NCBI GenBank assembly: GCA_002269645.1 | Contig: NIVC01000023.1 | Span: 1-64,000, forward strand | Length of the DNA stretch: 64,000 nt | Origin: Macrostomum lignano | Lineage: Eukaryota | Direction of reading: 5' to 3' | In this document: piece by piece, positions 1 through 23,800 of the stretch | Numbering within the stretch: position 1 is the stretch's first letter | How the letters are laid out: every line of letters begins with the position of its first letter | Notes under the pieces: generated by a model | Seen by the model: the letters and a program-made list of their open reading frames with translations, nothing else | Databases searched by the model: none | Told to the model about the DNA's origin: nothing | Translations under genes and position numbers: made by a program

Positions 1-429
1 TTACTCAACATCTGACTTTACGTTGGTTGAACCGGTCGCGTTCCCATTTATCTGCTTCAGATACCGACATTCTCGTGCTATTTTTAATAGCACCGAAAAT
101 GAATTCCCCGCTCTCTTGGGATTTGTCCCGAGCTCAATAGGTATTGTATTGGAGTGATTCTTTCTTTTTTCTCCCATTTAAATCCTATTTTCCAAAACTC
201 TTGAAGTATAATATGATTTTTTAATAACTTAATTAATTCTTGAAGCTTCTTATTATCCTGAACATTTACAGTACTAAATAAAATTTGGTATGAGATTTGA
301 ATGTTTTTATATTTGATTCTTGTTTAGGAATAGGAATAATAACATTATTTTGCCGCATCGATGGGGATTCTACTAAAAAGCCATTTTATATAGAAATATT
401 TTTATATATAAATATATAAATATTTTTAT

Positions 430-2468
430 TTGAGTAGGAGGTTTTTCCAAATAAGCAGTAGAGGGAAAAACATAACCAAACGACGTACTACCACATACAA
501 CTGCACCACGAATAAAATGTGCAGCATCCGCTCCACCAGTTCGAGCACCAAAAACCCAATAAGGGTCCAGATTTATCTAAAGTTCCCCAAGTTCCACTAT
601 CATATGTGAAAACGTTCTGTCAATGAGGGTAAAGAATCACCAGCAACATTGTATGACTGTAATCGGTACCAAACCCTTTGATTTAAAATATTAATTCAAA
701 TAAATGCCAATCGCCGTTATCAATATTAGCATAGGCTACAGTTTGATCCGCATCACTACTAACATCGTTACGAACCGTAGATCCGTCTGATTTTTTATTA
801 CTCCAAAACAACTCCAAACCTATCATGCCACTCACTGCAAAAACTATCAATCCGGCGTCGGTTGTTAATCCAGTCCCACCTTCCATGTTGGACGTTCGTG
901 ACAATATGCATAAAACCAAACCGCATCTGCACCAGTTCCTGTAGAATTAGCAACTCGGAAAAAGAAAGACGCAGATATATTTTGAAAATGTGTGAAATTG
1001 AATTGTAAAGCACCACTGACCCCACCAGTTTCACGAGTAATTCTAGCTCCGTTTTGATAATCGATATAAGAAGCGTCCCAATTAAAGAACCGACTGGATA
1101 TATATCTCCGGCGGTTGTTGGATTTTGATATCCAGACCAATTGCAAATTACTGGTTCGAACAAGGCCGCATCAATAGCAGGTATTCCATCCAATTTATTT
1201 TTATCGCTTCCAGACATTCTACCATTTGATGTTGGAGTAGCTAGCTGATCTACGTACGCTCGCGGAACTGCAGAAAGTATTTGAGTTGGCCAATTAAGAT
1301 CTTGAATTTCAACACGGTGTTCAAATAATTGTATTTGACGAACCTCGATAGGTTGTGTACCGGTACCACCAGTTGGGAAGAATACGCTATAATATTTCCA
1401 AAAATTAGTCGTTAAATTAGATAGAGCAAATGATGTTGCTTGAACTGGTGATCCCGACGTAGTTAATGTCGTCCATGAATCGGTAGCAACATTTTTTGCG
1501 CGAACCGACCACCCCGAGGGTATCTCAATTGTTTCACTGCCTGTAATTCTTAATTCAAATATTCTTCTATTATAACCTAAAAATTCAAATTGAATTTCCA
1601 TATTGGTTGTGGTTCCGGTATTTGGTGACCATTGTGTCGCAAGGCTTCCATCTCCAACTCGAAAAGCTGTGTTGCCATTTTCAGATGCTGTAAGAACAAC
1701 ATCAGGATTTGAAGTATTTGATGTAAGCGGCGTGGTAAAAATATCGGCGTCGGTTGCATTAGCTCGCTCGTTTACTTGGCCTAGAGTTATCGAGTCTGCG
1801 TTCTCTGTTCCAAATAATAAATTTGTTAATTTAAAATTATTCATATTAATATTTACCACTACGAGTGGCAACTTGATTATCGACATAGTTCTTATCAACC
1901 ACTGAATCACTAGTTGTAATTGAAACATTTATAATTCGGTTGTTGCTCATATCTAGGTTTCCGGTTGCGGTGGTTTGAACATAACGTGAATCAGAATCAG
2001 TTCGAGAATAAGAATCAGTTACATCTCTTTTTAAATTTAATCCATTATCAACTTCGGTTTTGGTATAAGAATCGGCTACGTTCCGTTTCAAATTTAATGA
2101 ATTATCAACTTCGGTTTTGGTATAAGAATCGGCCACGTTCCGTTTCAAATTTAATGAATTATCAACTCTGTTTTGGTATAAGAATCGGCTGTATTGCGTT
2201 TTAAATTTAATGAATTATCAACTTCGGTTTTGGTATAGGAATCGGCTACGTTCCGTTTCAGATTTAGTGAATCATCTATTTGAGTTTTGGTATAGGAATC
2301 TGCAACATTTCTTTTTAAATTTAGTTTAGTATCAACTTCACTTTTTTTATAACCTTCATCTTCATTAATATATCGATTATCTCCAAATGTAACACTTATT
2401 CCACCAGATGTGCCACCACCACCACTACTTGTTGTTCCGTTCCATGAGGGTGTTCCAGAAAATAACAT
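430..2468 (-). pseudogene. Fibre/adhesin-like protein (20-aa stalk repeats, discoidin-like domain, phage tail-fibre motif, L-type lectin-like domain), frameshifted
   Basis: Fragments 2151-2468, 1846-2148, 798-1928, 865-1146, 683-919 and ~430-600 join into one protein. Motifs: LNLKRNVADSYTKTEVDNS repeats; NLDMSNNRIINV..VDKNYVD; AFRVGDGSLATQW..IEVRQIQLFE; NGRMSGSDKNKLDGI; FFFRVANSTGTGADAVWF and, after a 1-nt correction, LLGFGARTGGADAAHFIR. At least five frameshifts. The 3' end is approximate. Confidence 0.7.
2030..2340. repeat. 60-bp coding tandem repeat (~5 copies) in the fibre gene
   Basis: Unit tttaaatttaatgaattatcaacttcggttttggtataagaatcggctacgttccgtttc. One copy lacks a base, causing the frameshift at ~2150. 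Confidence 0.9.
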
Positions 2469-2478
2469 TTTTTACTGT

Positions 2479-2919
2479 CTATTTTATAGAGTCTAAAATA
2501 TTCTTAAATACTTCGGGGTTTACACGAGCTTCATTCGAAAGTCGATATAAAAAATACAACGCCGCTTGCCCGCAATAACTTTTATCAAATGTTTGAAATT
2601 GTTCGTGATGATCTCCACATAAACGATTTTTAGTATGATTAAATTTGTCTTTTATTTCCTGTAACGGAGGAAGCGCGTATGAATCAAAAAAATAAACAAG
2701 TTTAGGTTTGGAATAACTTGCCGACCAATGAACACCATTTTCTTTTGTTGTTTCAATATTAACAATGAAAGATCCATATTGTGGTAAGTCTTTGATCTCA
2801 TCTCGCATAACACATCTGAATGGTTTTATTTTTAACTGCCTCGCCCAATTTGTTAATTCGATATTGCTTGTTGTGTCCGTTCCATATCTTTGTTTAAAAT
2901 CATCCCACGTCATGGTCAT
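2479..2919 (-). CDS. Adenain-like cysteine protease (Polinton PRO)
   Basis: Intact 146-aa ORF with catalytic H-D-Q-C order: GVHWSA, YFFDSY, QFQTFDKSYCG. Confidence 0.9.
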   Translation of the reverse strand: MTMTWDDFKQRYGTDTTSNIELTNWARQLKIKPFRCVMRDEIKDLPQYGSFIVNIETTKENGVHWSASYSKPKLVYFFDSYALPPLQEIKDKFNHTKNRLCGDHHEQFQTFDKSYCGQAALYFLYRLSNEARVNPEVFKNILDSIK

Positions 2920-2920
2920 T

Positions 2921-3124
2921 TTATGTTCCTGAAAAACTCTTGGTTTTAGTTAGTTTCGTAGGTGTGGGTTTTAACAATTCCTTTCTTATTTTATCAGCTT
3001 GTAACTGCCTTAATTTTGCTAGTTCTAGTTCGTAATTATCTTCAGCTTTTTTAACTTTTTCTGATTGTTTTTTTATTAAATTATTATTATCGTGCTTTGG
3101 CGAACATGTTGTTCGATTACCCAT
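2921..3124 (-). CDS. Small basic coiled-coil hypothetical protein (67 aa)
   Basis: TAAAAATG start, abuts the protease gene, heptad-like EDNYELELAKLRQLQADKIRKEL. Confidence 0.55.
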   Translation of the reverse strand: MGNRTTCSPKHDNNNLIKKQSEKVKKAEDNYELELAKLRQLQADKIRKELLKPTPTKLTKTKSFSGT

Positions 3125-3134
3125 TTTTACAGTA

Positions 3135-3920
3135 CTAAACCTGTTTTATACGTAAAATCACTGTTATTGACTGCCCACCAAAACTTATTAATCTATCGCT
3201 TTCATCTACAATCCTAATATAAATTGATTGAACATTATATTGATTTAATGGGTAATATATTGGGGTTTGAGGTGAAACAATCATTTTCTCTCCAATTGGA
3301 ACAGCAAGAAATGGGATTGAATAAATAATTCCACGTTGAACCAAAACTCCATTATTATCTGTTATATAACCACCGTTTGAAATGTCGGTTGTTATATTAA
3401 TTGTATTAACTCCACCCTCAATATTTCCCACTGTATCTCCGGTGCTTGATGTGGTAACTATTCGGGAATTAAATCCAAGTATGGTTCTGAGTGAATTTGC
3501 AATTGTGAAATCAACCTGATATCCGGATCCTAGTGATAGTGTGAATCTGCCAGACGGTAAATCAACACCTATAACAATTGCTCCTGTTACCCAATCACCA
3601 TTAGTTGTTAATTCTCCTTCTATATAAGCATTCAAATCAGTATAGCTATACGCTCCTGGGTTAATGCTAAATGTTGTCCAATTGGCTCCGGAATCTTTAG
3701 AATATCTAAATTGATTATTTGTTGCATTAATTAATTGAGGCATGTTGAAAACCGAAAATAGTATTAAACCTATTTGATAACTTAGGCTTTGATCAAGTTG
3801 TAATGGATCGCGCAATTGAATCCGTTGCTCGCTGGTTGTCATTATAAACTGTAATGTTGTACTAAATTTTGAATTAGTTCGATCTACCAATTGTTTTATA
3901 GTATCTAAATTTGTAGCCAT
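3135..3920 (-). CDS. Minor capsid protein (penton, single jelly roll)
   Basis: Beta-rich ORF (YQIGLILFSVFN, FSINPGAYSYTDLN, SLRTILGF, NTINITTDI, PIYYPL..IYIRIVDESDRLISFGG) resembling Polinton mCP. True start is the TAAAAATG at 3920, not 3968. Confidence 0.8.
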   Translation of the reverse strand: MATNLDTIKQLVDRTNSKFSTTLQFIMTTSEQRIQLRDPLQLDQSLSYQIGLILFSVFNMPQLINATNNQFRYSKDSGANWTTFSINPGAYSYTDLNAYIEGELTTNGDWVTGAIVIGVDLPSGRFTLSLGSGYQVDFTIANSLRTILGFNSRIVTTSSTGDTVGNIEGGVNTINITTDISNGGYITDNNGVLVQRGIIYSIPFLAVPIGEKMIVSPQTPIYYPLNQYNVQSIYIRIVDESDRLISFGGQSITVILRIKQV

Positions 3921-3964
3921 TTTTATAGTGGAAGAATCGGACGAAGTCCGCGTGCTATGCACGA

Positions 3965-4754
3965 TCATTCTTCTTCCTCATTATCTTCTTTTATCAAATT
4001 TGTTAAAATTCTATGTTTCCTTTCTAACCTCGGATTGATATAAATATGTTTGTATTGGCTATCATCCCAAATTTTTTTACACATACTTTTAAATGGTTTT
4101 GCATCCAACCCGGGATTAAATCTAGCGTGTATATTTTGTAAATCATAATTATCTAAATCAAACATTACACAACAACTTGCATTCTTTTTTATAATCGATT
4201 CTAATTCTCTAAAGGACTGTGTTAGATAAAAAGCTCCAATTCCATCTCCTCTACCACTAACAAAAATTTCCTTTTGCAATTCTTGATCGCCGTCATTAAT
4301 ACAATCATCAAATATAATTAGTGTTTTATCATTTTTTGGAATTTTGTCATAGTAATCGGTTTGATATTGTAATTGTTGGGGCTCGATCGGACGAAGTCCG
4401 CGACCCTTCGGGGCGATCGGTGATGTTTTCTGGCTGTTGTGCCATTGTTTTACATAAATCCTCAATGTCTGCTAGATTAAATCGCGGTTCGTCATCATCC
4501 TCATATTGCTCATATGCTCTTAACATTCTAAACAAGACATCTTTTTTTAATTTGTTTTTTAATCCATGTTTAAGAAATTCATAATATTTTATTCTAGGTT
4601 TATTAGTATAAATTATTAAATTATTATAGTCTAACATTCCATCTGTTGTTAATAAATCGTAAACAAAGTGTGTTTTTCCTTTACCTGATCCTCCGATTAC
4701 TAAACAAAGAAAAGGATCGTTTGGAAATATCTTATCGTGTTTTGCCTTTACCAT
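3965..4754 (-). pseudogene. A32/FtsK-like DNA packaging ATPase, one frameshift
   Basis: Walker A GGSGKGKT in 4347-4754; Walker B LIIFDD, YLTQS and IKKNA in 3965-4465. The frame switch lies near 4350. Confidence 0.88.
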
Positions 4755-4803
4755 TTTTAAAGAAATAATTTAAATAGGTGCGACGGTCGGAGACCTGCGC
4801 CGC

Positions 4804-6274
4804 TTACAGCGGGGCGTCCCGAACAATCGTGCCATCAGCTTTAGCAATTGACATATATTCCTCTAGAAACAATACGTGGGCGTCAAGTGCCTGATTACCA
4901 GTTTTATTAATCTCTAACATATAATTAAGTCCAATATTGGCTACGTTTTCTTTCTGTGCCGTTAGATCATAAACAACCACTGGATGAATGTTTAGAAACT
5001 CTGTGGGTGTGTACTGAGGGACGGCATACGCTTCATTTTTAGCATAATCTTGATAATATTTTATAAAATCATTAACATCATTATTTGCAATATTTAGATT
5101 AAGAGGATCTTTAACCGGATAATATTGATCATCAACCTGCAGGCGGATATTCTGAACATTAAACTCGTTAATAGCTGCAGCCGCATTGTCTGTTGCGGTG
5201 GCTGCTTGTTCTGCTATGGCACCCGATTGAAGCCAATATAAATCCCCATTTGCTCTTTTACTCCTTCTGTTTGTTATTTAAACCAAACAAAAATATATCT
5301 CACCCGACGTTTTGATGTCAGTATTTGCCACTGGAATGAATCCTGATTGTTATTAATGGTTCGCATAAAGTGTCTACGATTCAAATAAAATATTTCCTGA
5401 TCATGCGTTAACTGATTATCATGTGTTTTAAAAGTGGGGCTGTTACCTCAATAGTTGGTACGACTAATTGAATTGAATCTATACGAACTGCTATATCGGT
5501 TGAAATTGAGGTTCCATAAAGTATCCTAGGCTGATATCCACCAGATATTTGCAACTGTATCCCAAATTTTAATCCTTTCCATACCCGATTTGGTGAGAAA
5601 AACCCAAATAGTGGAAAGATTGAAAAGTCCTGCTCATATGCTGTTGCTGTGGTTAAAACCGCGACTGGGAATTTATTCTGACGATCTATAAAACCAGTAT
5701 TAATATCTTTTGTATTAGTCATAGTGGTTACAACTGGAACTATGTTTGTATTAAGGTAAACAATTAGCGCTGCAGTATCTGCACCGGCTGCGTTTTGTAC
5801 ATTAGGGAAAACTACTGCTTGACCGTTACCTTTATCCGGCATCCACCCAACATTATCACCAACTTGTTTTGATAAATAAGTATAATTTAAATGTTTCAAA
5901 ACTCCATTAATCTCTGCGGGGTTTGATGATGTCTCAACCTCAGCACCATTAACAGTTAGTTGAGCTTGGGAAAAACATTTATAAAACCAATCATTTTCTA
6001 TTATTATTCCGGATCGATCTGCGATATCTCCGGCTGCAAGAGCAGTTCCATCATTTCTAGTATACAACCATCTAACGCGGAAAAACGCATTTTTCATATC
6101 CAATATAGTGTTGGTTGCGCCGATGTCAAAAGTTACCGTTCCAGTAGTAAAGTTATTTGAATTATCACTTGTTGGTAGGGTATAATTTAAATCTCTTGCT
6201 CTGACCTCATTAATATACTGTCGGTGCTTTTTGAAATGAAATTTATCACTCCACATAGTTTTTGTTTCAGCCAT
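4804..6274 (-). pseudogene. Major capsid protein (double jelly roll), frameshift plus nonsense codon
   Basis: ORF 5408-6274 continues after a 1-nt loss in an A-run (~5427) as QLTHDQEIFYLNRRHF..QWQI..RYIFVWFK*..VQNIRLQVDDQYYP..PVVVYDLT, ending at TAA 4804-4806. Internal TAA at 5274-5276. The reconstructed protein is ~490 aa. Confidence 0.8.
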
Positions 6275-6308
6275 TTTTTTGAGTTAAAAAAGTTTTTTAT
6301 GTTAAAAA

Positions 6309-6983
6309 ATGAGTCAATTTATGGACGTTGATGGAGAGTTAGCGATTTATAAAGAGAAGCAAAGATATTCTGATTTTGTTAGAAATTTACAAAAAAGAAA
6401 GTTAGGAATACAATTAGCGGGTGAAAGATTTGCTGCTCCTTTTGTTAATCCTATTACTGGGAAAATTAGTGAACTAGAAAAAACAGATAAAGATCTTCTG
6501 GAAAAAATTGCTAAAAATACGGAGCCAAAAGAGGATGAAATTTTGGATGAGCCGCCAGCTTATGATGTTGATCAAGCTCAATTGAGAGTTGCAGAGATTA
6601 GACGTGCAGAGCGGGGCGATCGGGAACAATATCCAAGAGTACCAGCTAGTATTGCTGCGACAGATTTAGGTAATAATAATTATCGAATTGGTGGAGTTGA
6701 TAAAAATCGAAATGAACTATATAGAGAATTGGGTGGAGCATTTAATATTATTACGAACCCTAGGGTAAAATTTAACCCTGATTTATATACTAGAGATGAA
6801 TTAGTAAGTGCTAAAATTTTTTACGATGAGTTAGGAGGTGGGGGTGTTAAAAATACCAGCTTGTATAAAAGGATTGTTAATTCTATAAATAACAAACCGG
6901 CTGTTGGAGAAGGATTTAAAACTCCTAGAAAACTTGTTTTAGCTGCCGCGAAAGCTGCTGGACATACAGGAATCGCCCCGTAG
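6309..6983 (+). CDS. Hypothetical Polinton protein (possible core/structural protein), 224 aa
   Basis: Intact ORF divergent from MCP with an A-run ATG. No domain recognised. Confidence 0.7.
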   Translation: MSQFMDVDGELAIYKEKQRYSDFVRNLQKRKLGIQLAGERFAAPFVNPITGKISELEKTDKDLLEKIAKNTEPKEDEILDEPPAYDVDQAQLRVAEIRRAERGDREQYPRVPASIAATDLGNNNYRIGGVDKNRNELYRELGGAFNIITNPRVKFNPDLYTRDELVSAKIFYDELGGGGVKNTSLYKRIVNSINNKPAVGEGFKTPRKLVLAAAKAAGHTGIAP

Positions 6984-7035
6984 GGTCGCGAACCAAAGGT
7001 TCGATTAATTAATTGTTAAATTTATTTTTTATAAA

Positions 7036-7605
7036 ATGGAAACTAATAAGATTTGTACTAAGTGTAAACAAGAAAAACCGATGACGAAAGAATTTTATTT
7101 TTGGAGAAATGATTCAAAAAAAATTAGAAATGATTGTCGATCTTGTCATAATACCTCATCTGCTATTTGGATAAAAAACAATAAAGCTAAATGGAATGAA
7201 TATAGAAAAAATAAGTATCACACTGATGATAATTACAAACATATTGTTTTAATTAGAAATAGAATAAATTGGGCGTTGAAAAATTTTAATGACAAGGACT
7301 ATATCTCATATCTTGGTTGCACAAAAGAATTCTTTTTTGATTGGTTAAATTTCACAAGAAATTATTATGTATCAAAAGATTATACTGGAAAGTTAGATAT
7401 TGATCATTTCATCCCCGCTTCTTCATTTAGTTACAAAGATGATGATCAGATGATAAGGTCTGAAAATTGGAGAAATAAAAGATACTTAACTAGCGTAGAT
7501 AATCGCTATAAAAAAGTTCAACAACCAACCATTGAAGAGTTTGCAAAACAATTGGCGCTATCATGTATTTTTATGGCTATTAAAAATGACCCAAATAGTA
7601 TTTGA
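7036..7605 (+). CDS. HNH-family endonuclease with N-terminal Zn finger
   Basis: CTKC..CRSC zinc finger, then IDHFIP..ENWRNKRYLTSVDNRYK, an HNH-type pattern seen in viral homing-type nucleases. Confidence 0.7.
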   Translation: METNKICTKCKQEKPMTKEFYFWRNDSKKIRNDCRSCHNTSSAIWIKNNKAKWNEYRKNKYHTDDNYKHIVLIRNRINWALKNFNDKDYISYLGCTKEFFFDWLNFTRNYYVSKDYTGKLDIDHFIPASSFSYKDDDQMIRSENWRNKRYLTSVDNRYKKVQQPTIEEFAKQLALSCIFMAIKNDPNSI

Positions 7606-9162
7606 AGGAGGATTTTTAGACTTACAAAAAGGATTAACAAGCTTACCACCAATCTTTACTACTGGTAAATATACAGGGGAACTACACCTACCATCAATGA
7701 ACTTCACAGGTTAACCCGTGGCCTGAGTGAGGAAGGCAATGTCCTTGCTAGTCACTATTTGTGGCGACATCTCCAAATTGCGTGAAACCCGTCATACAGC
7801 TTCAAGTACCACTTCAATTGAGAAATCTTTTGAAGGAACAGAGGTAACTCCTCTTCCCAAAGGTAACAAGCTTGAAGACACGGTGGCAATGCGCAGCCAA
7901 GCTCCTAAGTATTTTAAATATAAGGAGAAGGTTCAGAGAGCAGACGGAGATGGGCGGTAATTTAACCGCTTAAGGTGTGCTCCAGCCTCTTTCGAAAGAT
8001 TGAGGGTAAACTACCCGGCACTCGCTTAGATTTGAGATTAAATCCTGATGACACCCCAAAATCTGATTCAATTCCAATAAATGGGATTGATTGGTTAGCA
8101 TACTATCACGACTTAGCATATAGAGATGCTGACAAGAACCCGCCCGAGGAAGCATTAAGATTAAAACATGAAGCCGATCAAAAAATGATTCAAGGATTAG
8201 ATAACTTGCAGGGATTATCGGTAGGTCAAAAATTAACTAGGTGGATGGTTAAAAAGATCTTGCAGTCTAAAGTTAAATTTGGTTTAGGAATTAATTACAA
8301 CCAACATGGTAATAATTGTGTCGAATGTTTGTTATTAAGTGGTAGTGGGCTAAGTTATGATAAGGCTAAGGTTCTTCATAAAGAATATCGAAAACCTAAA
8401 TTTTATAGAAAAATCATGAACTTCAAAAAGAATGAAATTTGGTATGCTGATTTAATGTCGATGCCGAACGAAAGAGGATATAAATATATCTTAACCATAT
8501 TAGATGGTTTTACTCGATACGCGTGGGCTGTTCCTTTGAAATCCAAAAAAGGAGAGGATGTTGCTGCTGCTTTTAGAAGTCTTGGAGAAAAAAGCGAACG
8601 TTTGTGTGTTGACGAAGGAAAAGAATTTTACAATCCTCATATGTATAAATTATATCATTTTGAAAAAGGACAAGAAAGGAAAAAAGACGCGAATGGGGAG
8701 TATATTAATAAAATTTATTCTATTTATGGAGAGAGTAAAAACGCATTAATAGAAAGATTTAATAGAACTTTAGGTAAGAAATTATGGTTTCAGTTTAGTC
8801 TTAATGGTAACCAAAAATGGGTAAAAATATTACCAGACGTAGTGAAAGATTATAACAATTCATATCATTCGGCGATAAAGATGACTCCTCAACAAGCTTA
8901 TAACAATCCTGAAAACGTTAAAGTTACTTTTGGAAAATTTGAAAAAAATAAAAAGAAATCTTTTAAGGTTGGTGATTCTGTTTATATCTATAAATGGAAA
9001 GATAAGTTTGAAAAAGGAAGAAAAGGATATTGGAAGATAAGTGAGAAATTTACTATCAGTAAAGTTTTAAATACCAATCCTACAACCTATATAATTGCTG
9101 ATAAGGACGGTGAAGAAATATTGGGTTCGTTTTATGAGAACCAACTAATATCAGCGAACTAA
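7586..9162 (+). CDS. PLA2-like domain fused to rve (DDE) integrase; two exons 7586-7711 and 8014-9162 (424 aa)
   Basis: Splicing restores ELHLPSMNFTG|PGTRLDLRL..INGIDWLAYYHDLAY (parvovirus-VP1-type PLA2 motif). Integrase triad WYADL / LCVDEGKEF / LIERFNRTL and Polinton-type C-terminus YIIADKDGEEILGSFYENQL. Confidence 0.9.
7712..8013 (+). ncRNA. Group I self-splicing intron, subgroup IC1
   Basis: P1 CAGGU/GCCUG with U.G at the 5' splice site; P2.1 GUCAC/GUGGC; P3 CAUCUCC(7768-74)/GGAGAUG(7946-52); P4 UUGCGU/GCGCAG; P5a CUUCAAG/CUUGAAG; L5b GAAA; P6a with CCUAAG..UAAGG receptor; P7 G-A-GAGCA/UGCUCC; P8 GCGGU/ACCGC; P9 CCUC..GAAA..GAGG; P9.0 AG/CU. P/Q/R/S elements AAAUUGCGUGAAA, AAUGCGCAGC, GUUCAGAGAGCA, AAGGUGUGCUCC. 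Confidence 0.95.
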
Positions 9163-9172
9163 GTTCGAACAA

Positions 9173-9427
9173 TTACTTGAGACAACATGGTAGTAAATTT
9201 TTTATAACAAACAAAAACAATATTATTACTATAATTGTTACTAATATTATTATTGACATTTGTTCAACTGTTATCAAACTTAAATTTTCATTAAGTTCAT
9301 TAATCGGCACATTTCCGATGTAGGAATAATCGTGCAAAGCACGCGAACCATGGGTTCGATTTACCTTCATTTTTTTATATATATTTTTCACAATAAATGT
9401 CGTTTCTGTTATAGAATAATAGTTCAT
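9173..9427 (-). CDS. Small single-pass membrane protein (84 aa)
   Basis: C-terminal hydrophobic helix IIILVTIIVIILFLFVI followed by KNLLPCCLK; A-run ATG start. Confidence 0.6.
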   Translation of the reverse strand: MNYYSITETTFIVKNIYKKMKVNRTHGSRALHDYSYIGNVPINELNENLSLITVEQMSIIILVTIIVIILFLFVIKNLLPCCLK

Positions 9428-9443
9428 TTTTTAAATATTTTTT

Positions 9444-9758
9444 TCACATAAAAATTTCACTTTCATTCTCTGAATCACTGGTTTCATATGAACTATTTGT
9501 TGATTCGGAATCTGTTGATCTAACCTCCCAATCATCCGAATTTAAATAATCTCCAAGTTGAAATATTAACTCACCCTCTTGTTCTAAATCATACATCTCA
9601 TCTAGCTCTAATGGATAAAGTTTTAGGTCGTGCTTGTCGTCATATTTTAAATAAACTTCATCAATTATTCCATTCAAAATATGTTGTTTTATTATCTCTG
9701 CATTTTTAGCAACAGTCTCAAAAGTATCACTAACAGAAAAGGTGTAAACTCGGGTCAT
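9444..9758 (-). CDS. Acidic hypothetical protein (104 aa)
   Basis: Intact ORF, TAAAAATG start, D/E/S-rich tail. Confidence 0.6.
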   Translation of the reverse strand: MTRVYTFSVSDTFETVAKNAEIIKQHILNGIIDEVYLKYDDKHDLKLYPLELDEMYDLEQEGELIFQLGDYLNSDDWEVRSTDSESTNSSYETSDSENESEIFM

Positions 9759-9820
9759 TTTTAGTAACAGAAAAAGACCCTTCGCGCCTGCGGCGCGGGC
9801 TAGGGGTTATAGAGTAGTAG

Positions 9821-10076
9821 TATAGAAAAAGACGCTTCTAGATCAGACCTTATTTTAATGACCGTTTTTATGGTCTTAAGAGGGGGGACGCGAGGGGGGT
9901 GTTGGGGAGTGTTTGGAAGTGTTGGGAAGTGATTTTTATTGTTAGGGGTGATTATGGGTGATTAGATGTGTTAAGGGTGTTTAGATGTGTTTTTTTATTT
10001 ACCCCCCGTGTCCCCCCTCTAGACCCTTAAAACGGTCATTAAAAAAGTGCTCTGGGTCTAGAAGCGTCTTTTTATA
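9821..10076. repeat. Imperfect inverted repeat (fold-back) at the element boundary
   Basis: Arm 9821-9900 is approximately the reverse complement of 10001-10076, around a 100-nt loop. AGTAGTAG lies immediately upstream (9813-9820). Confidence 0.9.
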
Positions 10077-10162
10077 TGGGGGCGATTTTGTCAGGGGGCG
10101 ATTCTGTCAGGGGGTGATTCTGTCAGGAAGCGATTCTGTCAGGGAGTGATTCTGTCAGGGGC
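10077..10162. repeat. 16-bp minisatellite (cagggggcgattctgt), ~5 copies
   Basis: Direct tandem copies sharing the ggggcgattct core with the 24722-25820 array. Confidence 0.85.
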
Positions 10163-10251
10163 AATATCTATATACATTTCCGAAAAGACAGATAGATCCA
10201 TCATTTAGCATTTAATTAATGCACAACAAGTTGTTATTCAATATCGCTCAG

Positions 10252-12561
10252 ACAAGACCAGATTCACTGTGAAGAACTCCGAATCAGCAATACTGCACGT
10301 ATTCTCAATGGAGAGAAATCGAATCAACCAAGCGGACAGTCCCTGCTCCAGCCGGCCGCTCGGGACCATAGACTACGTGACCAACTTCGGAATTGGACCG
10401 GACAATCAAAAGCGAAGAGATTTCACAGAGAGCGTGGAAGATGTACTGAATGACCGGATACAAGATCTGATTTATCAGCGATGCGGCTGTTACTCCCATC
10501 GGATGCCATTTCGAGTGGGAAAAAGCCTGCTATGCTATTATGCACCGCTGCAGTACCGGAAGCAACCCAGTAGTGAATTGCTGACTCAGATCTACTGTCA
10601 CGATTATTGGCATCAGAAGTTCATTGGAATTTCTGAGTTAGACGATGTTAGCACCGTTGTTAGACCGTGTCACGAAACGTATCGTGAGGTTCGGTATAAG
10701 AGTACTAGGTGAGTTGCTTTGGTGCTAGTTCTCTAGACTGGTAGATATTAGCATAGTAGACTGGTAGATATTAGCATAGTAGACTGGTAGATATTGGCAT
10801 AGTAGACTGGTAGTTATTGCAATGGTAGACTGGTAGATATTAGCATAGTAGACTGGTAGTTATTGCAATGGTAGACTGGTAGATATTAGCAAAGTAGACT
10901 GGTAGATATTGCAATAGTAGACTGGTAGTTATTGCAATGGTAGACTGGTAGTTATTGCAATGGTAGACTGGTAGATATTGCAATGGTAGACAGGTAGATA
11001 TTAGCATAGTAGACAGGTAGATATTAGCATAGTAGACTGGTAGTTATTGCAATGGTAGACTGGTAGATATTAGCATAGTAGACTGGTAGATATTAGCATA
11101 GTAGACAGGTAGATATTAGCATAGTAGACAGGTAGATATTAGCATAGTAGACTGGTAGTTATTGCAATGGTAGACTGGTAGATATTAGCATAGTAGACAG
11201 GTAGATATTAGCATAGTAGACTGGTAGTTATTGCAATGGTAGACTGGTAGATATTAGCATAGTAGACTGGTAGATATTAGCATAGTAGACAGGTGGATAT
11301 TAGCATAGTAGACTGGTAGTTATTGCAATGGTAGACTGGTAGATATTAGCATAGTAGACAGGTGGATATTAGCATAGTAGACTGGTAGTTATTGCAATGG
11401 TAGACTGGTAGATATTAGCATAGTAGACAGGTGGATATTAGCATAGTAGACTGGTAGTTATTGCAATGGTAGACTGGTAGATATTAGCATAGTAGACAGG
11501 TAGATATTAGCATAGTAGACTGGTAGTTATTGCAATGGTAGACTGGTAGTTATTGCAATGGTAGACTGGTAGATATTGGCATAGTAGACTGGTAGTTATT
11601 AGCATAGTAGACAGGTAGATATTAGCATAGTAGACTGGTAGTTATTGCAATGGTAGACTGGTAGATATTGCAATGGTAGACAGGTAGATATTAGCATAGT
11701 AGACAGGTAGATATTAGCATAGTAGACTGGTAGTTATTGCAATGGTAGACTGGTAGATATTAGCATAGTAGACTGGTAGATATTGGCATAGTAGACTGGT
11801 AGATATTGGCATAGTAGACTGGTAGTTATTGCAATGGTAGACTGGTAGATATTAGCATAGTAGACAGGTAGATATTAGCATAGTAGACTGGTAGTTATTG
11901 CAATGGTAGACTGGTAGATATTAGCATAGTAGACAGGTAGATATTAGCATAGTAGACTGGTAGTTATTGCAATGGTAGACTGGTAGATATTAGCATAGTA
12001 GACAGGACAGCTAGATATATACACACAGACGGCAGACAACGCACATTTAAAAGTGCACATGCATCTGCAGATGGCCCACTGACGAAGACCTGGTATCGGT
12101 GACCATTTTGTACTTTCTACACCGGTTGGCAAACGGCACGGAATTGTCAGGACCGAACGACCCCCATGATCATCGAATATTTAATTTCTCCGATGCGGAA
12201 GTTGTAGCGGCTGCCACTAAAAATGGCACCATAAAGTTGAGCAGCCGTGAGAACGTCGCCATCAGATCCCTGCTGCTGCCCCGTTGCGCTGGCATTCATG
12301 AATTTCACGAAGGCAACATCGCTGAGACGGCGGCCTGTTTGAACAAGGACATTGTCAGGAGAAATCTATTAAGAATCAATGTGCGACTTGCATCACCTGC
12401 TGCCACCGTGTATAACGAGTCATATTCGTATACGGGAATTGAGTTCCTGTCCGAGGTAGGTAGTTTTAGCTCGAATTGCATGCGGTTTGTTTGTTTGCTG
12501 CCTAGTTATTTGGTACATGTTAGTTAGTTAGTTAGTTAGGTAGTTAGTTAGGTAGTCAGTC

Positions 12562-15558: not shown

Positions 15559-18523
15559 TTACTCCTTCCTGCTGTAAACCTCAAACCGAAATGGGATTCC
15601 ATGCTCGCGCATCTCCCCAGACACCGATTCCAGTTTAAACAGTTCGTCTAACGAATCCATTGGGAAAAAACGATCTGCAGGCAAATCACATAGCACCCTA
15701 GTCAGGTGAACTCGTTGACAAGTTGCCATGGTTACGGCGCTTCGATAAATCTCTTGGCCACCCATAATCCAGACAGTTGGAGATGCCAAGCGATGATTAG
15801 CCAACCATTTCGCGTAATCCAATGCCGATTTTAGACTAGGCAGCATCGTAAACGAATTAGCGCTTATCTTCTTAGCAACGGTTGCCATGCGAGAACCGAT
15901 CACCAGGTGAATTCGGCGCGAATCTAACGCTAAATTAATTGGCATAGTTTCGAATGAAACTCGACCGGAGATGTTGACAACTGGCAACGGTTCGAGTTCG
16001 TCCATCTCGTGATCGTTTCGAGTGTTTCGAGTGAAATATTCAACATCCAGCATCAGATTTGGCCACGGAAGCTGCGTACTGTTTGCGAAACCGCCGTTTG
16101 AGTCTAGGGCGGCTACTGAGACCGCTAAGGTGAGTTCATTGAGCTTATCCGCGCCAATGTGACGCCACATGCGCAGACGAACCAAAGGGTTTTGGGGTGG
16201 ATTGACGCCCAGCAATGAAGGCGCCTCTTCCTGCCAATGGCTGGAAATTATAGCGAGTTAAATGGTCTGAGTCACGGGTGATGATTCAGGGGATGTAAGG
16301 AGACGTTATGATGATGATTAAGGGAGTGTAAGCCTCAGTCTGGTGATGATTCAGGAGGATCAAGCCTCAGTCTGGTGATGATTCAGGAGGATCAAGCCTC
16401 AGTCTGGTGATGATTCAGGAGGATCAAGCCTCAGTTTGGTGATGATTCAGGGGGATCAAGCCTCAGTTTGGTGATGATTCAGGAGGATAAAGCCTCAGTT
16501 TGGTGATGATTCAGGAGGATAAAGCCTCAGTTTGGTGATGATTCAGGAGGATAAAGCCTCAGTTTGGTGATGATTCAGGAGGTTCAAGCCTCAGTTTGGT
16601 GATGATTCAGGGGGATCAAGCCTCAGTTTGGTGATGATTCAGGAGGATCAAGACTCAGTTTGGTGATGATTCAGGGGGATCAAGCCTCAGTTTGGTGATG
16701 ATTCAGGAGGATAAAGCCTCAGTTTGGTGATGATTCAGGAGGATAAAGCCTCAGTTTGGTGATGATTCAGGAGGATAAAGCCTCAGTTTGGTGATGATTC
16801 AGGAGGTTCAAGCCTCAGTTTGGTGATGATTCAGGGGGATCAAGCCTCAGTTTGGTGATGATTCAGGAGGATCAAGCCTCAGTTTGGTGATGATTCAGGG
16901 GGATCAAGCCTCAGTTTGGTGATGATTCAGGAGGTTCAGTATTCCTCAGTTTGATGATTCAGGGGGATCAAGCCTCAGTTTGGTGATGATTCAGGAGGTT
17001 CAGTATGCCTCAGTTTGATGATTCAGGGGGATCAAGCCTCAGTTTGGTGATGATTCAGGGGGATCAAGCCTCAGTTTGGGGATGATTCAGGAGGACCAAG
17101 CCTCAGTTTGGTGATGATTCAGGGGGATCAAGCCTCAGTTTGGTGATGATTCAGGAGGATCAAGCCTCAGTTTGGTGATGATTCAGGAGGATCAAGCCTC
17201 AGTTTGGTGATGATTCAGGAGGATCAAGCCTCAGTTTGGTGATGATTTAGGAGGATCAAGCCTCAGTTTGGTGATGATTCAGGAGGATCAAGACTCAGTT
17301 TGGTGATGATTTAGGAGGATCAAGCCTCAGTTTGGTGATGATTCAGGAGGACCAAGCCTCAGTTTGGTGATGATTCAGGAGGTTCAGTATTCCTCAGTTT
17401 GATGATTCAGGGGGATCAAGCCTCAGTTTGGTGATGATTCAGGAGGTTCAGTATTCCTCAGTTTGATGATTCAGGGGGATCAAGCCTCAGTTTGGTGATG
17501 ATTCAGGAGGTTCAGTATTCCTCAGTTTGATGATTCAGGAGGTTCAAGCCTCAGTTTGGTGACTATTCAGGAGGTTCAAGCCTCAGTTTGGTGATGATTC
17601 AGGGGGATCAAGCCTCAGTTTGGTGATGATTCAGGGGGATCAAGCCTCAGTTTGGTGATGATTCAGGGGGATCAAGCCTCAGTTTGGTGATGATTCAAGG
17701 GGGATCAAGCCTCAGTTTGGTGATGATTCAGGAGGACCAAGCCTCAGTTTGGTGATGATTCAGGAGGTTCAGTATTCCTCAGTTTGATGATTCAGGGGGA
17801 CCAAGCCTCAGTTTGGTGATGATTCAGGAGGTTTAGTATTCCTCAGTTTGATGATTCAGGGGGATCAAGCCTCAATTTGGTGATGATTCAGGAGGTTCAG
17901 TATTCCTCAGTTTGATGATTCAGGGGGTTTAAGCCTCAGTTTAGAATTTACCTTTTATCGCTAATTCTCTGCATCCAGATATCCTTAATTGGGCATTCCA
18001 GACGGTCTCCGTTGCCACACTCGGGCGACATTATCTGCAGCGCTGCGAACCTGGTCAACAGGCAACTGCGGCCACTCAGACTCGGTACAAAGAGGGGTAC
18101 CGCCTGCAGCGGCGAGTCAGCTTCTCGACTATTGACAAACGAATATTTAGCAACCATTGAGCACGACTCAGCCACAGCGGAATAGATCTGAGGCCGATCC
18201 TCGTTAATATCAATTTGCATCTCGATGTTACCAGCAGATAAATAAGTCGCTTTTAATTTGTTTGAATTGCAAGATTCCAGGAAAGCAGATGTTAATGTGA
18301 AATTCGATGATTTGCAACCACTAGTGCACTCGTCTGCGGACAGTGGAACAAGATTCACCTGTTCAGGCATTGGCGTCCGCGTTGCTATGGCAACGGCAGA
18401 AGAGATGACGTCATTCGCTAACCGATGGTTGACAGTTACTAAATCGATTGGGCAACCATCTGGTCCGTAGGTGCCAATGACTGTTAGCTGATAGGCTCGC
18501 GGAGTGCAAAAGGAATCTGTCAT
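15559..18523 (-). CDS. DHFR: Divergent dihydrofolate reductase with long N-terminal extension; exons 17952-18523 and 15559-16240 (417 aa)
   Basis: DHFR motifs QLPWPNLMLDVEYF, SGRVSFETMP, VWIMGGQEIY, VHLTRV..ADRFFP, FRFEVY. A phase-2 GT-AG intron (16241-17951) joins the exons in frame. An acceptor at 18545 allows a further upstream exon or a trans-spliced leader. Confidence 0.8.
16278..17941. repeat. 32-bp intronic minisatellite
   Basis: Unit ggtgatgattcaggaggatcaagcctcagttt fills almost the whole DHFR intron. Confidence 0.95.
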
Positions 18524-20894: not shown

Positions 20895-23800
20895 TTAGGC
20901 AGCCTGATAGCACATAATTAGCTTTTTGAAGGCCACGAATACACCTTTGCGAGGCTTGCTGAAATTCAGGTGAAAATAGTAATAGTGACTTTGGGGCGTA
21001 TGTCAAAAATAGATAACAGGTAATTGGCGGCTCATTAAACTACCTAGACGACAGGTATTTGGGTAATTGCCGGCTCATTAAACTACCTAGATAACAGGTA
21101 ATTGACGGTCATTCAAGTACCTTGATAGGAGGCAGGTAATTAGCCGCTCATTAAACTACCTAGATAACAGGTAATTAATGGCTCATTAAAGTACCTAGAT
21201 AACAGGTAATTGACGGCTCATTAAACTACCTAGATAACAGGTAATTGACGGTCATTCAAGTACCTTGATAGGAGGCAGGTAATTAGCCGCTCATTAAAGT
21301 ACCTAGATAACAGGTAATTAATGGCTCATTAAAGTATCTAGATAACAGGTAATTGACGGCTCATTAAACTACCTAGATAACAGGTAATTGACGGTCATTC
21401 AAGTACCTTGATAGGAGGCAGGTAATTAGCCGCTCATTAAACTACCTAGATAACAGGCAATTGGCGGCTCATTAAAGTACCTAGATGACAGGTATTTGGG
21501 TAATTGGCGGCTCATTAAACTACCTAAATAACAGGTAATTGGTGGCTCATTAAAGTACCTAGATAACAGGTAATTGACGGTTATTTAGGTACCTAAATGA
21601 CAGGTAATTGGGTAACTAGTGGCTCATTAAACTACCTAGATAACAGGTAATTAATGGCTCATTAAAGTACCTAGATAACAGGTAATTAATGGCTCATTAA
21701 AGTATCTAGATAACAGGTAATTGACGGCTCATTAAACTACCTAGATAACAGGTAATTGACGGTCATTCAAGTACCTTGATAGGAGGCAGGTAATTAGCCG
21801 CTCATTAAACTACCTAGATAACAGGCAATTGGCGGCTCATTAAAGTACCTAGATGACAGGTATTTGGGTAATTGGCGGCTCATTAAACTACCTAAATAAC
21901 AGGTAATTGGTGGCTCATTAAAGTACCTAGATAACAGGTAATTGACGGTTATTTAGGTACCTAAATGACAGGTAATTGGGTAACTAGTGGCTCATTGAAG
22001 TACCTAGATAACAGGTAATTGGCGGCTCATTAAACTACCTAGATAGCAGGTGATTGGCGGCTCATTAAACTACCTAGATCATAGGCAATTGGCGGCTCAT
22101 TGAAGTACCTAGATAACAGGTAATCGGCGGCTCATTAAAGTAGATCAAAGATAATTAGGGGCTAGTCAAAGGGCATAATATGACAGGCAGCTGCCTCACC
22201 ACTGAAAATAGCGCCTGCCATCGTACACCCCGTCGTGCTTGCCCTCCTCCTGGTCCAGCTCAACGCCGACATAATAATCTGTCCGGCCAGGCAGGCGGCC
22301 GACAAAGTGCACCAGGCCCTTCGAGATCCGACCGCCGTAGCGAGTGAATTTGACGAGGTCGCCAGACCGGATGTCGGCCGCCTGCTTTGGAGCGAACGGC
22401 AGCCGACCAGCGGTGGCGAACGGCTGCTGCTGAACGGGCGGCTCCATCGCACGCTGGCCAGAGGTGTCCCGTTGGCGGCTGCGCTGATGCTGAGTAGCTG
22501 AGCTGGGCCGCTGCTGCCTGCCTGATGTTGCCGTTGCTGCTGCTAGGAGAAGAAAAGAAATGAGAATACAAACTCCCGTCAAGTATGATACCTTTTGGGT
22601 TAAAAACACCACCCAAAACCTCAGGATCAATCATCCCAAACCTCAGGATCAATCATCCCAAACCTCAGGATCAATCATCCGAAACCTCAGGATCAATCAT
22701 CCCAAACCTCAGGATCAATCATCCCAAACCTCAGGATCAATCATCCGAAACCTCAGGATCAATCATCCGAAACCTCAGGATCATCAATCATTCCAAACCT
22801 CAGGATCATCAATCATCCCAAACCTCAGGATCAATCATCCTAAACCTCAGGATCAATCATCCCAAACCTCAGGATCAAACATCCCAAACCTCAGGATCAA
22901 TCATTCCAAACCTCAGGATCATCAATCATCCTAAACCTCAGGATCAATCATTCCAAACCTCAGGATCATCAATCATCCGAAACCCCAGGATCAATCATCC
23001 GAAACCTCAGGATCAATCATCCGAAACCTCAGGATCAATCATCCGAAACCTCAGGATCAATCATCAAAAACCCCAGGATCAATCATCCCAAACCTCAGGA
23101 TCAATCATCCTAAACCTCAGGATAATCAATCATCCGAAACCCCAGGCTCAATCATCCCAATCCTCAGGATCATCAATCATCCTAAACCTCAGGATCATCA
23201 ATCATCCGAAACCTCAGGATCAATCATCCCAAACCTCAGGATCAATCATTCCAAACCTCAGGATCAATCATCCCAAAGCCCAGGATCAATCATCCGAAAC
23301 CTCAGGATCAATCATCAAAAACCCCAGGATCAATCATCCGAAACCTCAGGATCAATCATCAAAAACCCCAGGATCAATCATCCGAAACCTCAGGATCAAT
23401 CATCAAAAACCCCAGGATCAATCATCCGAAACCTCAGGATCAATCATCCGAAACCTCAGGATCAATCATCCGAAACCTCAGGATCAATCATCCGAAACCT
23501 CAGGATCAATCATCCGAAACCTCAGGATCAATCATCCTAAACCTCAGGATCAATCATTCCAAACCTCAGGATCATCAATCATCCGAAACCTCAGGATCAA
23601 TCATCCCAAATCTCAGGATCAATCATCCCAAACCTCAGGATCAATCATCCCAAACCCCAGGATCAATCATCAAAAACCCCAGGATCAATCATCCCAAACC
23701 TCAGGATCAATCATCAAAAACCCCAGGATCAATCATCCGAAACCTCAGGATCAATCATCAAAAACCCCAGGATCAATCATCCGAAACCTCAGGATCAATC

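Follow-up and report, generated by a model that had tools for sequence, protein, structure and literature searches.

Short, GC-rich sequences that fold into two adjacent hairpins, known as double-hairpin elements (DHEs), have been described in the mitochondrial genomes of fungi, namely, Allomyces and other chytrids as well as Schizosaccharomyces octosporus and S. osmophilus (PMC10085805, PMC2800124, PMC3787672, PMC2665238; here and below, statements about published systems refer to the portions of the cited papers that were consulted). These DHEs are patchily distributed among close relatives and occur between genes as well as within some genes, in genomes that also harbor group I introns and homing endonucleases (PMC10085805, PMC2800124, PMC3787672); those of the fission yeasts have a GC content above 75%, and those of Allomyces are reported in the consulted portion to lack flanking duplications (PMC2800124). 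The GC clusters of yeast mitochondrial DNA, such as GC42, are palindromic, are flanked by direct repeats of 2-3 bp (AG or ACT), show presence/absence polymorphism in populations, merge and shuffle their units, and spread by recombination, with intron endonucleases proposed as the movers (PMC4478555). How DHEs and GC clusters move is presented as an open question (PMC4478555, PMC3787672). In eukaryotic DNA viruses, the relevant cases are the miniature inverted-repeat transposable elements (MITEs) of Pandoravirus and Pithovirus, which are small non-autonomous parasites (PMC13359090), and the palindromes found at gene 3' ends in mimivirus, known as the hairpin rule (PMC4402537). Here, we describe units of two adjacent hairpins in a Maverick (Polinton), an endogenous double-stranded DNA virus, at the start of a contig from the animal Macrostomum lignano, where these units are very probably mobile, selfish elements of the Maverick family that carries them.

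The stretch analyzed, hereinafter the window, comprises 64,000 nucleotides (positions 1 to 64,000 of contig NIVC01000023.1, assembly GCA_002269645.1). The genome searched was the M. lignano assembly (G000), in which the window contig is G000:C23 and the sister loci are labeled with L-numbers.

Double-hairpin units and their filled and empty alleles

Positions 1-9850 of the window contain 12 CG-bounded triloop hairpins, nine of them perfect, and four abutting doubles, compared to 0.67 +/- 0.77 hairpins (maximum 3) and no doubles in 300 dinucleotide shuffles of the same stretch; no double hairpins were found in the host part of the window (10200-64000). An initial annotation, made from the sequence alone, had described these hairpins as a combinatorial family that marks gene ends. 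The excess over shuffled controls is clear-cut, and all four pairs annotated as complete (3938-3963, 4388-4415, 6974-7003 and 9331-9358) are indeed present. The relevant features are as follows (strand given where one is assigned):

1..10170 (right end approximate), right half of an endogenous Maverick/Polinton, truncated by the contig start
2498..2499, empty AT target in a protease-like open reading frame (ORF); between one and three units are present here in other copies
3091..3115, double-hairpin element with slight decay, placed in frame at the N-terminus of a small minus-strand ORF, with AT on both sides
3938..3963, double-hairpin element, 13+13 nt, at the ATPase stop and the minor capsid start
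4388..4415, double-hairpin element, 13+15 nt, an in-frame 10-codon insert in a variable ATPase linker
4777..4820, related hairpin array of another build, over the stop of the major capsid protein (MCP) gene
6974..7003, double-hairpin element, 15+15 nt, in the last codons of ORF6309, which it provides with a stop
7589..7596, plus strand, empty site directly after the start codon of the PLA2-integrase gene; other copies have one or two units
7860..7861, plus strand, empty site within a group I intron; a unit occupies it in other copies and in a second Maverick family
9142..9167, old double-hairpin element that covers the integrase stop; its first arm has decayed
9331..9358, double-hairpin element, 13+15 nt, inserted in frame into a small minus-strand ORF
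9783..9797, terminal-repeat hairpin, invariant in the allele comparison, not a mobile unit

The usual unit consists of a 13-nt arm and a 15-nt arm that abut without a spacer (171 of 194 pairs), and each arm begins with CG or CA and ends with CG or TG. These CG (or CA/TG) ends are the only terminal inverted repeat that the units share, whereas the interior and the arms vary freely: as the initial annotation had perceived, arms are used combinatorially, with 62 distinct arms, 73 distinct double units and 49 stem-family pairings. The structure of two adjacent hairpins is maintained despite this sequence change. In particular, with a search pattern that left four base pairs free, that is, demanded no pairing there, 78 of the 83 matches (27 of 30 distinct ones) were fully complementary at these four pairs, and the types of pairs vary. 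The A.G mismatch that had been noted in both copies of one arm module is likewise real. The loop is closed by C-G in 57 of the 62 distinct arms, with GNA loops in 24 and purine-N-A loops in 45, the p-values of these loop statistics being optimistic since the arms are related and were partly chosen as hairpins. As DNA, GNA mini-hairpins show unusual stability and resist nucleases, and a related mini-hairpin is far less stable when made of RNA (PMC13037366), so that, given these loop types, the active form of the unit is probably single-stranded DNA. When folded as single-stranded DNA, the 3938 and 9331 units adopt the two-arm shape on both strands (z -3.6 to -4.2); the 6974 unit is weaker (z -2.1) and the 4388 unit is not significant (z -0.7). 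A reading of the arms as RNA UUCG tetraloops was rejected because the register of the sequence does not fit.

Comparison at orthologous sites, the check proposed with the initial annotation, showed that filled and empty alleles coexist among sister copies. The 9331 site is filled in 12 of 30 alleles and empty in 18, the small minus-strand ORF encoding 85 amino acids in the filled form and 75 in the empty one; the 6974 site is filled in 4 of 28 alleles and empty in 24, with a single AT in the empty form compared. Sites that are empty in the window are filled elsewhere, namely 7589-7596 (7591) in 12 of 27 alleles and 7860 in 10 of 30. The 3091 unit, annotated as a decayed pair, is a whole unit with slight decay, 3 nt shorter than the one found in 12 of 20 sister alleles, 6 others being empty and 2 decayed (the window and L004); here, too, the filled site lengthens a small minus-strand ORF by 10 residues. 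At 3938, 11 distinct arrays were found among 20 records, and arm combinations differ widely between sister copies. The 4388 site is filled in all 19 close alleles; this unit is missing from divergent copies, two of which have other units in the same ATPase linker. The hairpin at 9155-9167, intact in the window as annotated, is not a single one but the second arm of an older double, whose first arm (9142-9154) is decayed in the window and intact in L133; the second arm is broken in many copies.

Two further annotated members of the family do not belong to it. The putative fused hairpin at 6603-6618 is not a hairpin and varies like codons, and the one at 9783-9797 belongs to the terminal repeat, its stem being unchanged in 30 of 30 alleles, with the same hairpin present at all 7 left ends checked. 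The 9783 hairpin is a better candidate for a true cis-signal than the mobile units. The terminal region (9783-10170) contains, in addition to this GCA-loop hairpin, an internal inverted repeat (~9820-9900 with 10002-10077) and 15-bp tandem repeats near the end, which are likely to be origin or promoter features. The hairpin annotated at 4785-4812 is related to the units, as supposed, but it is part of a differently built, length-variable array (4777-4820) with an arm set of its own, some arms of which are related to those of the mobile units, and with ~28 to 86 nt between the anchors across copies.

Altogether, 167 arrays at 117 loci fell into 41 clusters and, after manual merging, into 27 insertion points, an approximate number given that loci partly overlap and that the merge pools three nearby ATPase positions; five more records beyond the 117 loci also carry units, some at further sites. 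Eighteen of the 27 points lie inside reading frames (those of both polymerases, the ATPase, the protease-like ORF, the integrase and small ORFs), 7 are at stops or between genes, and 2 are in the intron. The polymorphism is not an artefact of one assembly because contigs from independent runs show filled and empty alleles at 9331, the empty allele at 6974, and inserts at 3130 and 7589; the same alleles also recur in many contigs, and an assembly artefact was accordingly rejected. In a tree of the integrase, which included 41 of 50 loci (9 had no cut-out integrase stretch), filled and empty alleles are scattered, to the extent that identical rows differ (L023 and L025), as expected from turnover and recombination.

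The units leave a regular insertion signature. Where a close empty allele exists, the net gain is the unit (26-30 nt) plus 2 nt, usually 30 nt in total; in the clean cases, these 2 nt are a copy of the flank, mostly AT and also GT. A close empty allele is available for 40 of the 87 flank classes, which are not independent events. In 17 of these 40, an identical dinucleotide borders the unit on either side and is single in the empty allele; this dinucleotide is mostly AT, and it is GT at the L063, L066, L069 and L122 sites. The GT..GT cases share 78-80 of 80 flank bases with the single-GT empty alleles. Helitron-like elements insert between A and T without duplication, and this mode is ruled out here because GT..GT inserts stand at single-GT empty sites. 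In another 7 of the 40 classes, the empty allele agrees with just one of the two flanks, which suggests that the donor can contribute a flank copy. The initial suggestion of a mobile palindrome at ATCGAT-like sites is therefore upheld as regards mobility, with a clean 2-bp flank duplication in the 17 classes above, but the target is looser, mostly a purine-pyrimidine dinucleotide (AT, GT or AC). Units insert either way round and form tandem stacks of up to three, with AT between them (L122); at individual sites, one arm is kept while the other changes, and loops occur in both orientations.

Inside genes, the inserts are filtered for protein function, and it is the frame-keeping ones that survive there. 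The usual gene-internal inserts are 30, 60 or 90 nt long and are read through, with two deviating records (one 28-nt allele and one partly detected array); a length not divisible by 3 is found at 4 of the 7 gene-end sites versus none of the 18 internal sites as the usual allele (Fisher p = 0.003). Moreover, at least 5 of the 6 frames contain no stop in 53 of 60 28-nt units. The units thereby add 10-residue peptides to viral proteins, and the two translated cassettes pointed out initially, DRPEGSRTSSDR and NRTHGSRALHD, are both present in ORFs. The three stop codons reported at hairpins could be located as well: the integrase TAA in the 9155 loop, the ORF6309 TAG in the 6974 unit, and the MCP stop at 4804-4806. 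Stops came to lie in loops where a unit landed on the last codons, as with the 6974 unit and with the 9142-9167 unit, which provided the stop of the integrase gene and, in many copies, has decayed since then.

The host Maverick and the range of the units

The units are confined to Mavericks. A one-arm pattern yielded 191 matches in the genome and a pattern with four free pairs 221, with no matches for the reversed control in either case; 47 of the 48 genome matches examined lie in Maverick DNA, the remaining one being a lone arm. The 48 comprise the first 30 matches (two of them from the window, all in Mavericks) and 18 chosen mostly from contigs without an MCP match (17 in Mavericks). Eight of the 47 belong to a second Maverick family, with an ATPase ~31% identical. 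One unit travelled to this second family inside the group I intron: the same intron there contains the same unit in the same place, and no unit was found outside the intron in five stretches of the second family. Searches beyond this genome, with patterns specific to this sequence family, gave 13 single-arm matches without a second hairpin, then none, then one unpaired match in IMG/VR, and two matches in GC-rich metagenomic contigs, which are not double hairpins. No related Maverick contigs were found in IMG/VR and no phage match was found for the polymerase; word searches, which are weak tests, produced no homologues of the MCP and the HNH-like protein; and none of 150 ATPase relatives contains a 7-residue peptide that the units could encode.

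The host element has the features of a Maverick, namely, a protein-primed B-family polymerase, a retroviral-type integrase, a packaging ATPase, terminal repeats and many copies, and its GC content is 34%, compared to 61-75% for the hairpin units. In the window, a fibre-like gene and a protease-like ORF are accompanied by genes for the minor capsid protein, the ATPase and the major capsid protein, by the HNH-like ORF and the PLA2-integrase gene, and by the terminal repeat; the names of the capsid, protease, fibre and PLA2 genes are provisional assignments from gene order and motifs. In a domain search of the window proteins, the rve integrase domain was found and the match to Pox_A32 (A32 ATPase) was weak; the ATPase and MCP frames are broken in the window copy. 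A search of the genome with an MCP fragment gave 140 matches among 135 scored candidates, most with 86-100% identity.

In the left halves of sister copies, the polymerase is of one of two types: the first includes an endonuclease VII domain, and the second matches DNA_pol_B_2. Two very different polymerases share one position in a single Maverick family (L053 and L064 versus L055 and L067), and units occur in both. An ORF next to the polymerase (L064:1735-2721) weakly matches adenovirus protein X / mu core protein (PF05829, E 1e-4, below the cut-off). The fibre-like gene (window 2008-2351) contains 57-bp tandem repeats whose copy number differs among sister copies, and the L057 copy has an internal tandem duplication of several kb in which the fibre-like gene and the adjacent ORFs occur twice. 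On the host side, the window contains a long satellite of ~21-bp units from 10735-12000 and beyond, a DHFR gene (15559-16170) and a repeat-made ORF (22560-23979).

Two features at the integrase gene may be relevant to the mobility of the units:

7036..7605, plus strand, free-standing HNH/endonuclease VII-like ORF (phrog_1035 endonuclease VII, E 2.9e-8)
7712..8013, plus strand, group I intron that interrupts the PLA2-integrase gene in its PLA2-like part (RF00028, 63.3 bits, E 1.7e-14)

The HNH-like ORF, which had no Pfam match and a structure prediction too poor to use (pLDDT 40), is, judging from its sequence, a candidate mobilizer of the units. Between copies that are otherwise 95% identical, it is swapped for divergent versions. 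The intron is missing from L126 and L157, and its boundaries were deduced from such intron-less copies (e.g. L126); in some copies it carries a unit. By the same comparison, the last intron base is A in the window and most copies and G in L036-L038, L040, L119, L137 and the second family. The literature searched yielded no report of group I introns in animal Mavericks, the intron described here being a predicted one. In the second family, the intron holds an ORF with an Eco47II-like restriction endonuclease domain (L158:4987-5673; L154); the first-family intron is without such an ORF, and the free-standing HNH-like gene lies just upstream of it. Collaborative homing by the intron and a separate endonuclease is possible. 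The Maverick of this animal acts as a recombining virus population with parasites of its own, namely, the hairpin units, the group I intron and the free-standing endonuclease, and with two exchangeable polymerase types.

Mechanism of movement and rival explanations

The best explanation for these observations, to which we give roughly an even chance of being correct, is that the units are non-coding, selfish double-hairpin elements moved by a nuclease-assisted route through single-stranded DNA. Protein-primed replication with strand displacement is established for this class of polymerases. During such replication, the displaced strand would fold into two stacked arms, and a junction-cutting nuclease encoded by the element, perhaps the free-standing HNH/endonuclease VII-like protein or the endonuclease VII domain of one polymerase type, would cut at the base, freeing either the unit or a 3' end bearing the unit, with a 2-nt tail. 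This tail could then pair with a purine-pyrimidine dinucleotide where another genome has a nick or staggered break, and fill-in by the polymerase followed by ligation would fix the unit. New alleles would spread between copies by recombination and be stored in the host chromosome upon integration of the Maverick. A more specific proposal, which we put forward tentatively, is that the unit is a structure-defined 30-nt single-stranded DNA transposon, that is, a nuclease-resistant two-arm dumbbell with a 2-nt tail, excised by a Maverick junction nuclease, joined by the viral polymerase and sized to keep the reading frame.

Several observations weigh against the nuclease-assisted explanation, in which the nucleases named are candidates. 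The second family has both the endonuclease VII domain in its polymerase and an integrase, yet its unit has not spread, which argues against these two as movers, unless this family, with many copies that are 99-100% identical, is simply too young. In favor of the free-standing HNH ORF as the mover, none lies beside the integrase in L157, the second-family copy examined for it. Within the first family, L126 has the HNH-like ORF and no unit in 10 kb, so that this ORF is not sufficient for spread. As for the signature, 47 of the 87 flank classes lack a close empty allele, and in 16 of the other 40 neither flank matches the closest empty allele, which clean duplication does not predict; these may reflect an empty allele different from the one that was hit, or conversion. 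The non-independence of the flank classes and the optimism of the loop statistics count on the same side, as do the imprecision of many losses of units and the fact that 48 of ~200 genome matches were examined.

Much of the same evidence could be accommodated by copying without a nuclease, whereby the polymerase stalls at a folded unit, switches template through pairing of 2-4 nt of flank, copies the arms and the flank, and switches back. Such template switching would require only the genes of the element itself and would explain the gain of unit plus 2 nt, the mixed flanks, the replacement of arms in place, both loop orientations at one site and the base changes one position outside the flank towards a G-AT-C junction at sites S15 and S26 (at S15, G in 3 filled alleles and A in the 17 empty alleles listed). 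However, two switches guided by 2-nt homology predict ragged lengths, whereas the gain is unit plus 2 nt at most sites with a close empty allele, and the second family has a polymerase and one unit without any spread; we consider this scenario less probable, although a serious contender. Movement as a minimal class II (MITE-like) element, by means of the Maverick integrase or a host transposase, would account for the 2-bp flank duplication and the loose target, and an rve integrase is encoded on the element, but this is improbable: the terminal inverted repeat amounts to CG..CG with freely varying interior and arms, and a host transposase would not respect the absence of host-DNA copies among the 48 matches examined. 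Maverick integrases, for their part, typically make duplications of 5-6 bp, and a 28-bp duplex would be too short for synapsis of the ends. Least probable of all is an RNA route, in which host enzymes reverse-transcribe pieces of transcripts or the units move by reverse splicing in connection with the group I intron. The intron is present on the element, and routes through RNA have been proposed for the Allomyces DHEs and yeast GC42 (PMC2800124, PMC4478555); against this stand the Maverick-only location, the DNA-type loops, the lack of poly(A) tails at insertions and the lack of a reverse transcriptase among the element proteins scanned.

The original notion that the hairpins mark gene ends, and more generally that they are functional cis-signals for transcript 3'-end formation, replication or packaging, along the lines of the mimivirus hairpin rule, is quite improbable as well. 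In its favor, gene ends are enriched for insertion points (7 of 27 sites versus ~4.6% of the length; binomial p = 0.0002), none of the close copies examined lacks the units at 3938 and 4388, and GNA mini-hairpins function in phage origins and N4 promoters (PMC13037366). Nevertheless, the majority of the sites are gene-internal (18 of 27, with 2 in the intron), most copies have no unit at 6974 and 9331, the former a gene-end unit with 24 of 28 alleles empty, the 9155 hairpin decays without compensation, the triloops fit DNA better than RNA, and the one truly invariant hairpin is that of the terminal repeat. A conserved gene-end signal is likewise contradicted by the divergent first-family stretches of 10 kb, 7 of 20 of which, L126 among them, carry no unit at all. 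The enrichment at gene ends is thus best read as tolerance, and single sites may have been domesticated later.

Comparison with known systems

No description of such units in Mavericks was found in the literature searched (listings and abstract openings, exclusive of subscription papers, Repbase and supplements). In its consulted portion, a study of nematode Polintons describes nuclease domains in polymerases and mentions no hairpins or palindromes (PMC10748475), and a 2026 preprint on mosaicism in these viruses, in the portion consulted, has a single mention of a palindromic repeat, which is in a legend, and also deals with homing endonucleases (10.64898/2026.10.13.758929).

The Maverick makes the question of how such elements move testable, being a replicon of less than 20 kb that encodes few enzymes, exists in more than 100 natural copies and offers filled as well as empty alleles for comparison, with the second family serving as a control. 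If the units are indeed single-stranded DNA transposons, they would be about the smallest mobile elements known and hyperparasites of an animal Maverick, and they would provide mitochondrial DHEs and GC clusters with the mechanism that has long been missing.

Among the systems outside mitochondria, the giant-virus MITEs resemble the units in being small non-autonomous parasites of a eukaryotic DNA virus, but MITEs come with a cognate transposase and with genuine terminal inverted repeats, whereas the units have CG ends only and are defined by their fold; MITEs are also typically several times longer. In mimivirus, transcripts end in hairpins that are cut by a viral enzyme, whereas the Maverick units are mostly gene-internal and polymorphic, with only 7 of 27 sites at gene ends. 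The T-shaped terminal hairpins of parvoviruses are a pair of adjacent short triloop arms formed by single-stranded DNA, and bacterial REP (repetitive extragenic palindromic) doublets move as a unit; unlike both, the Maverick units are internal and dispersed, with generally unpaired flanks, and no HUH nuclease was found among the element proteins scanned.

The closest parallels are mitochondrial. Like the GC clusters, the Maverick units have a short flanking direct repeat and undergo merger and shuffling, but they differ in the replicon, which is not mitochondrial, in the flank (AT, GT or AC), in size and in the fold of two abutting triloop hairpins. Like the fungal DHEs, they are GC-rich relative to their replicon, consist of two adjacent hairpins and are sporadic among close relatives, a likeness in structure and behavior. 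Unlike the DHEs, they reside in a nuclear endogenous double-stranded DNA virus and not in an organelle, have a fixed 13+15 geometry with freely shuffled arms, and are frequently inserted in frame in essential viral genes; unlike the DHEs of Allomyces, they are accompanied by a 2-bp flank duplication. What is well supported, then, is a mobile double-hairpin element parasitic on a Maverick, which works like the mitochondrial DHEs and GC clusters in a new setting.

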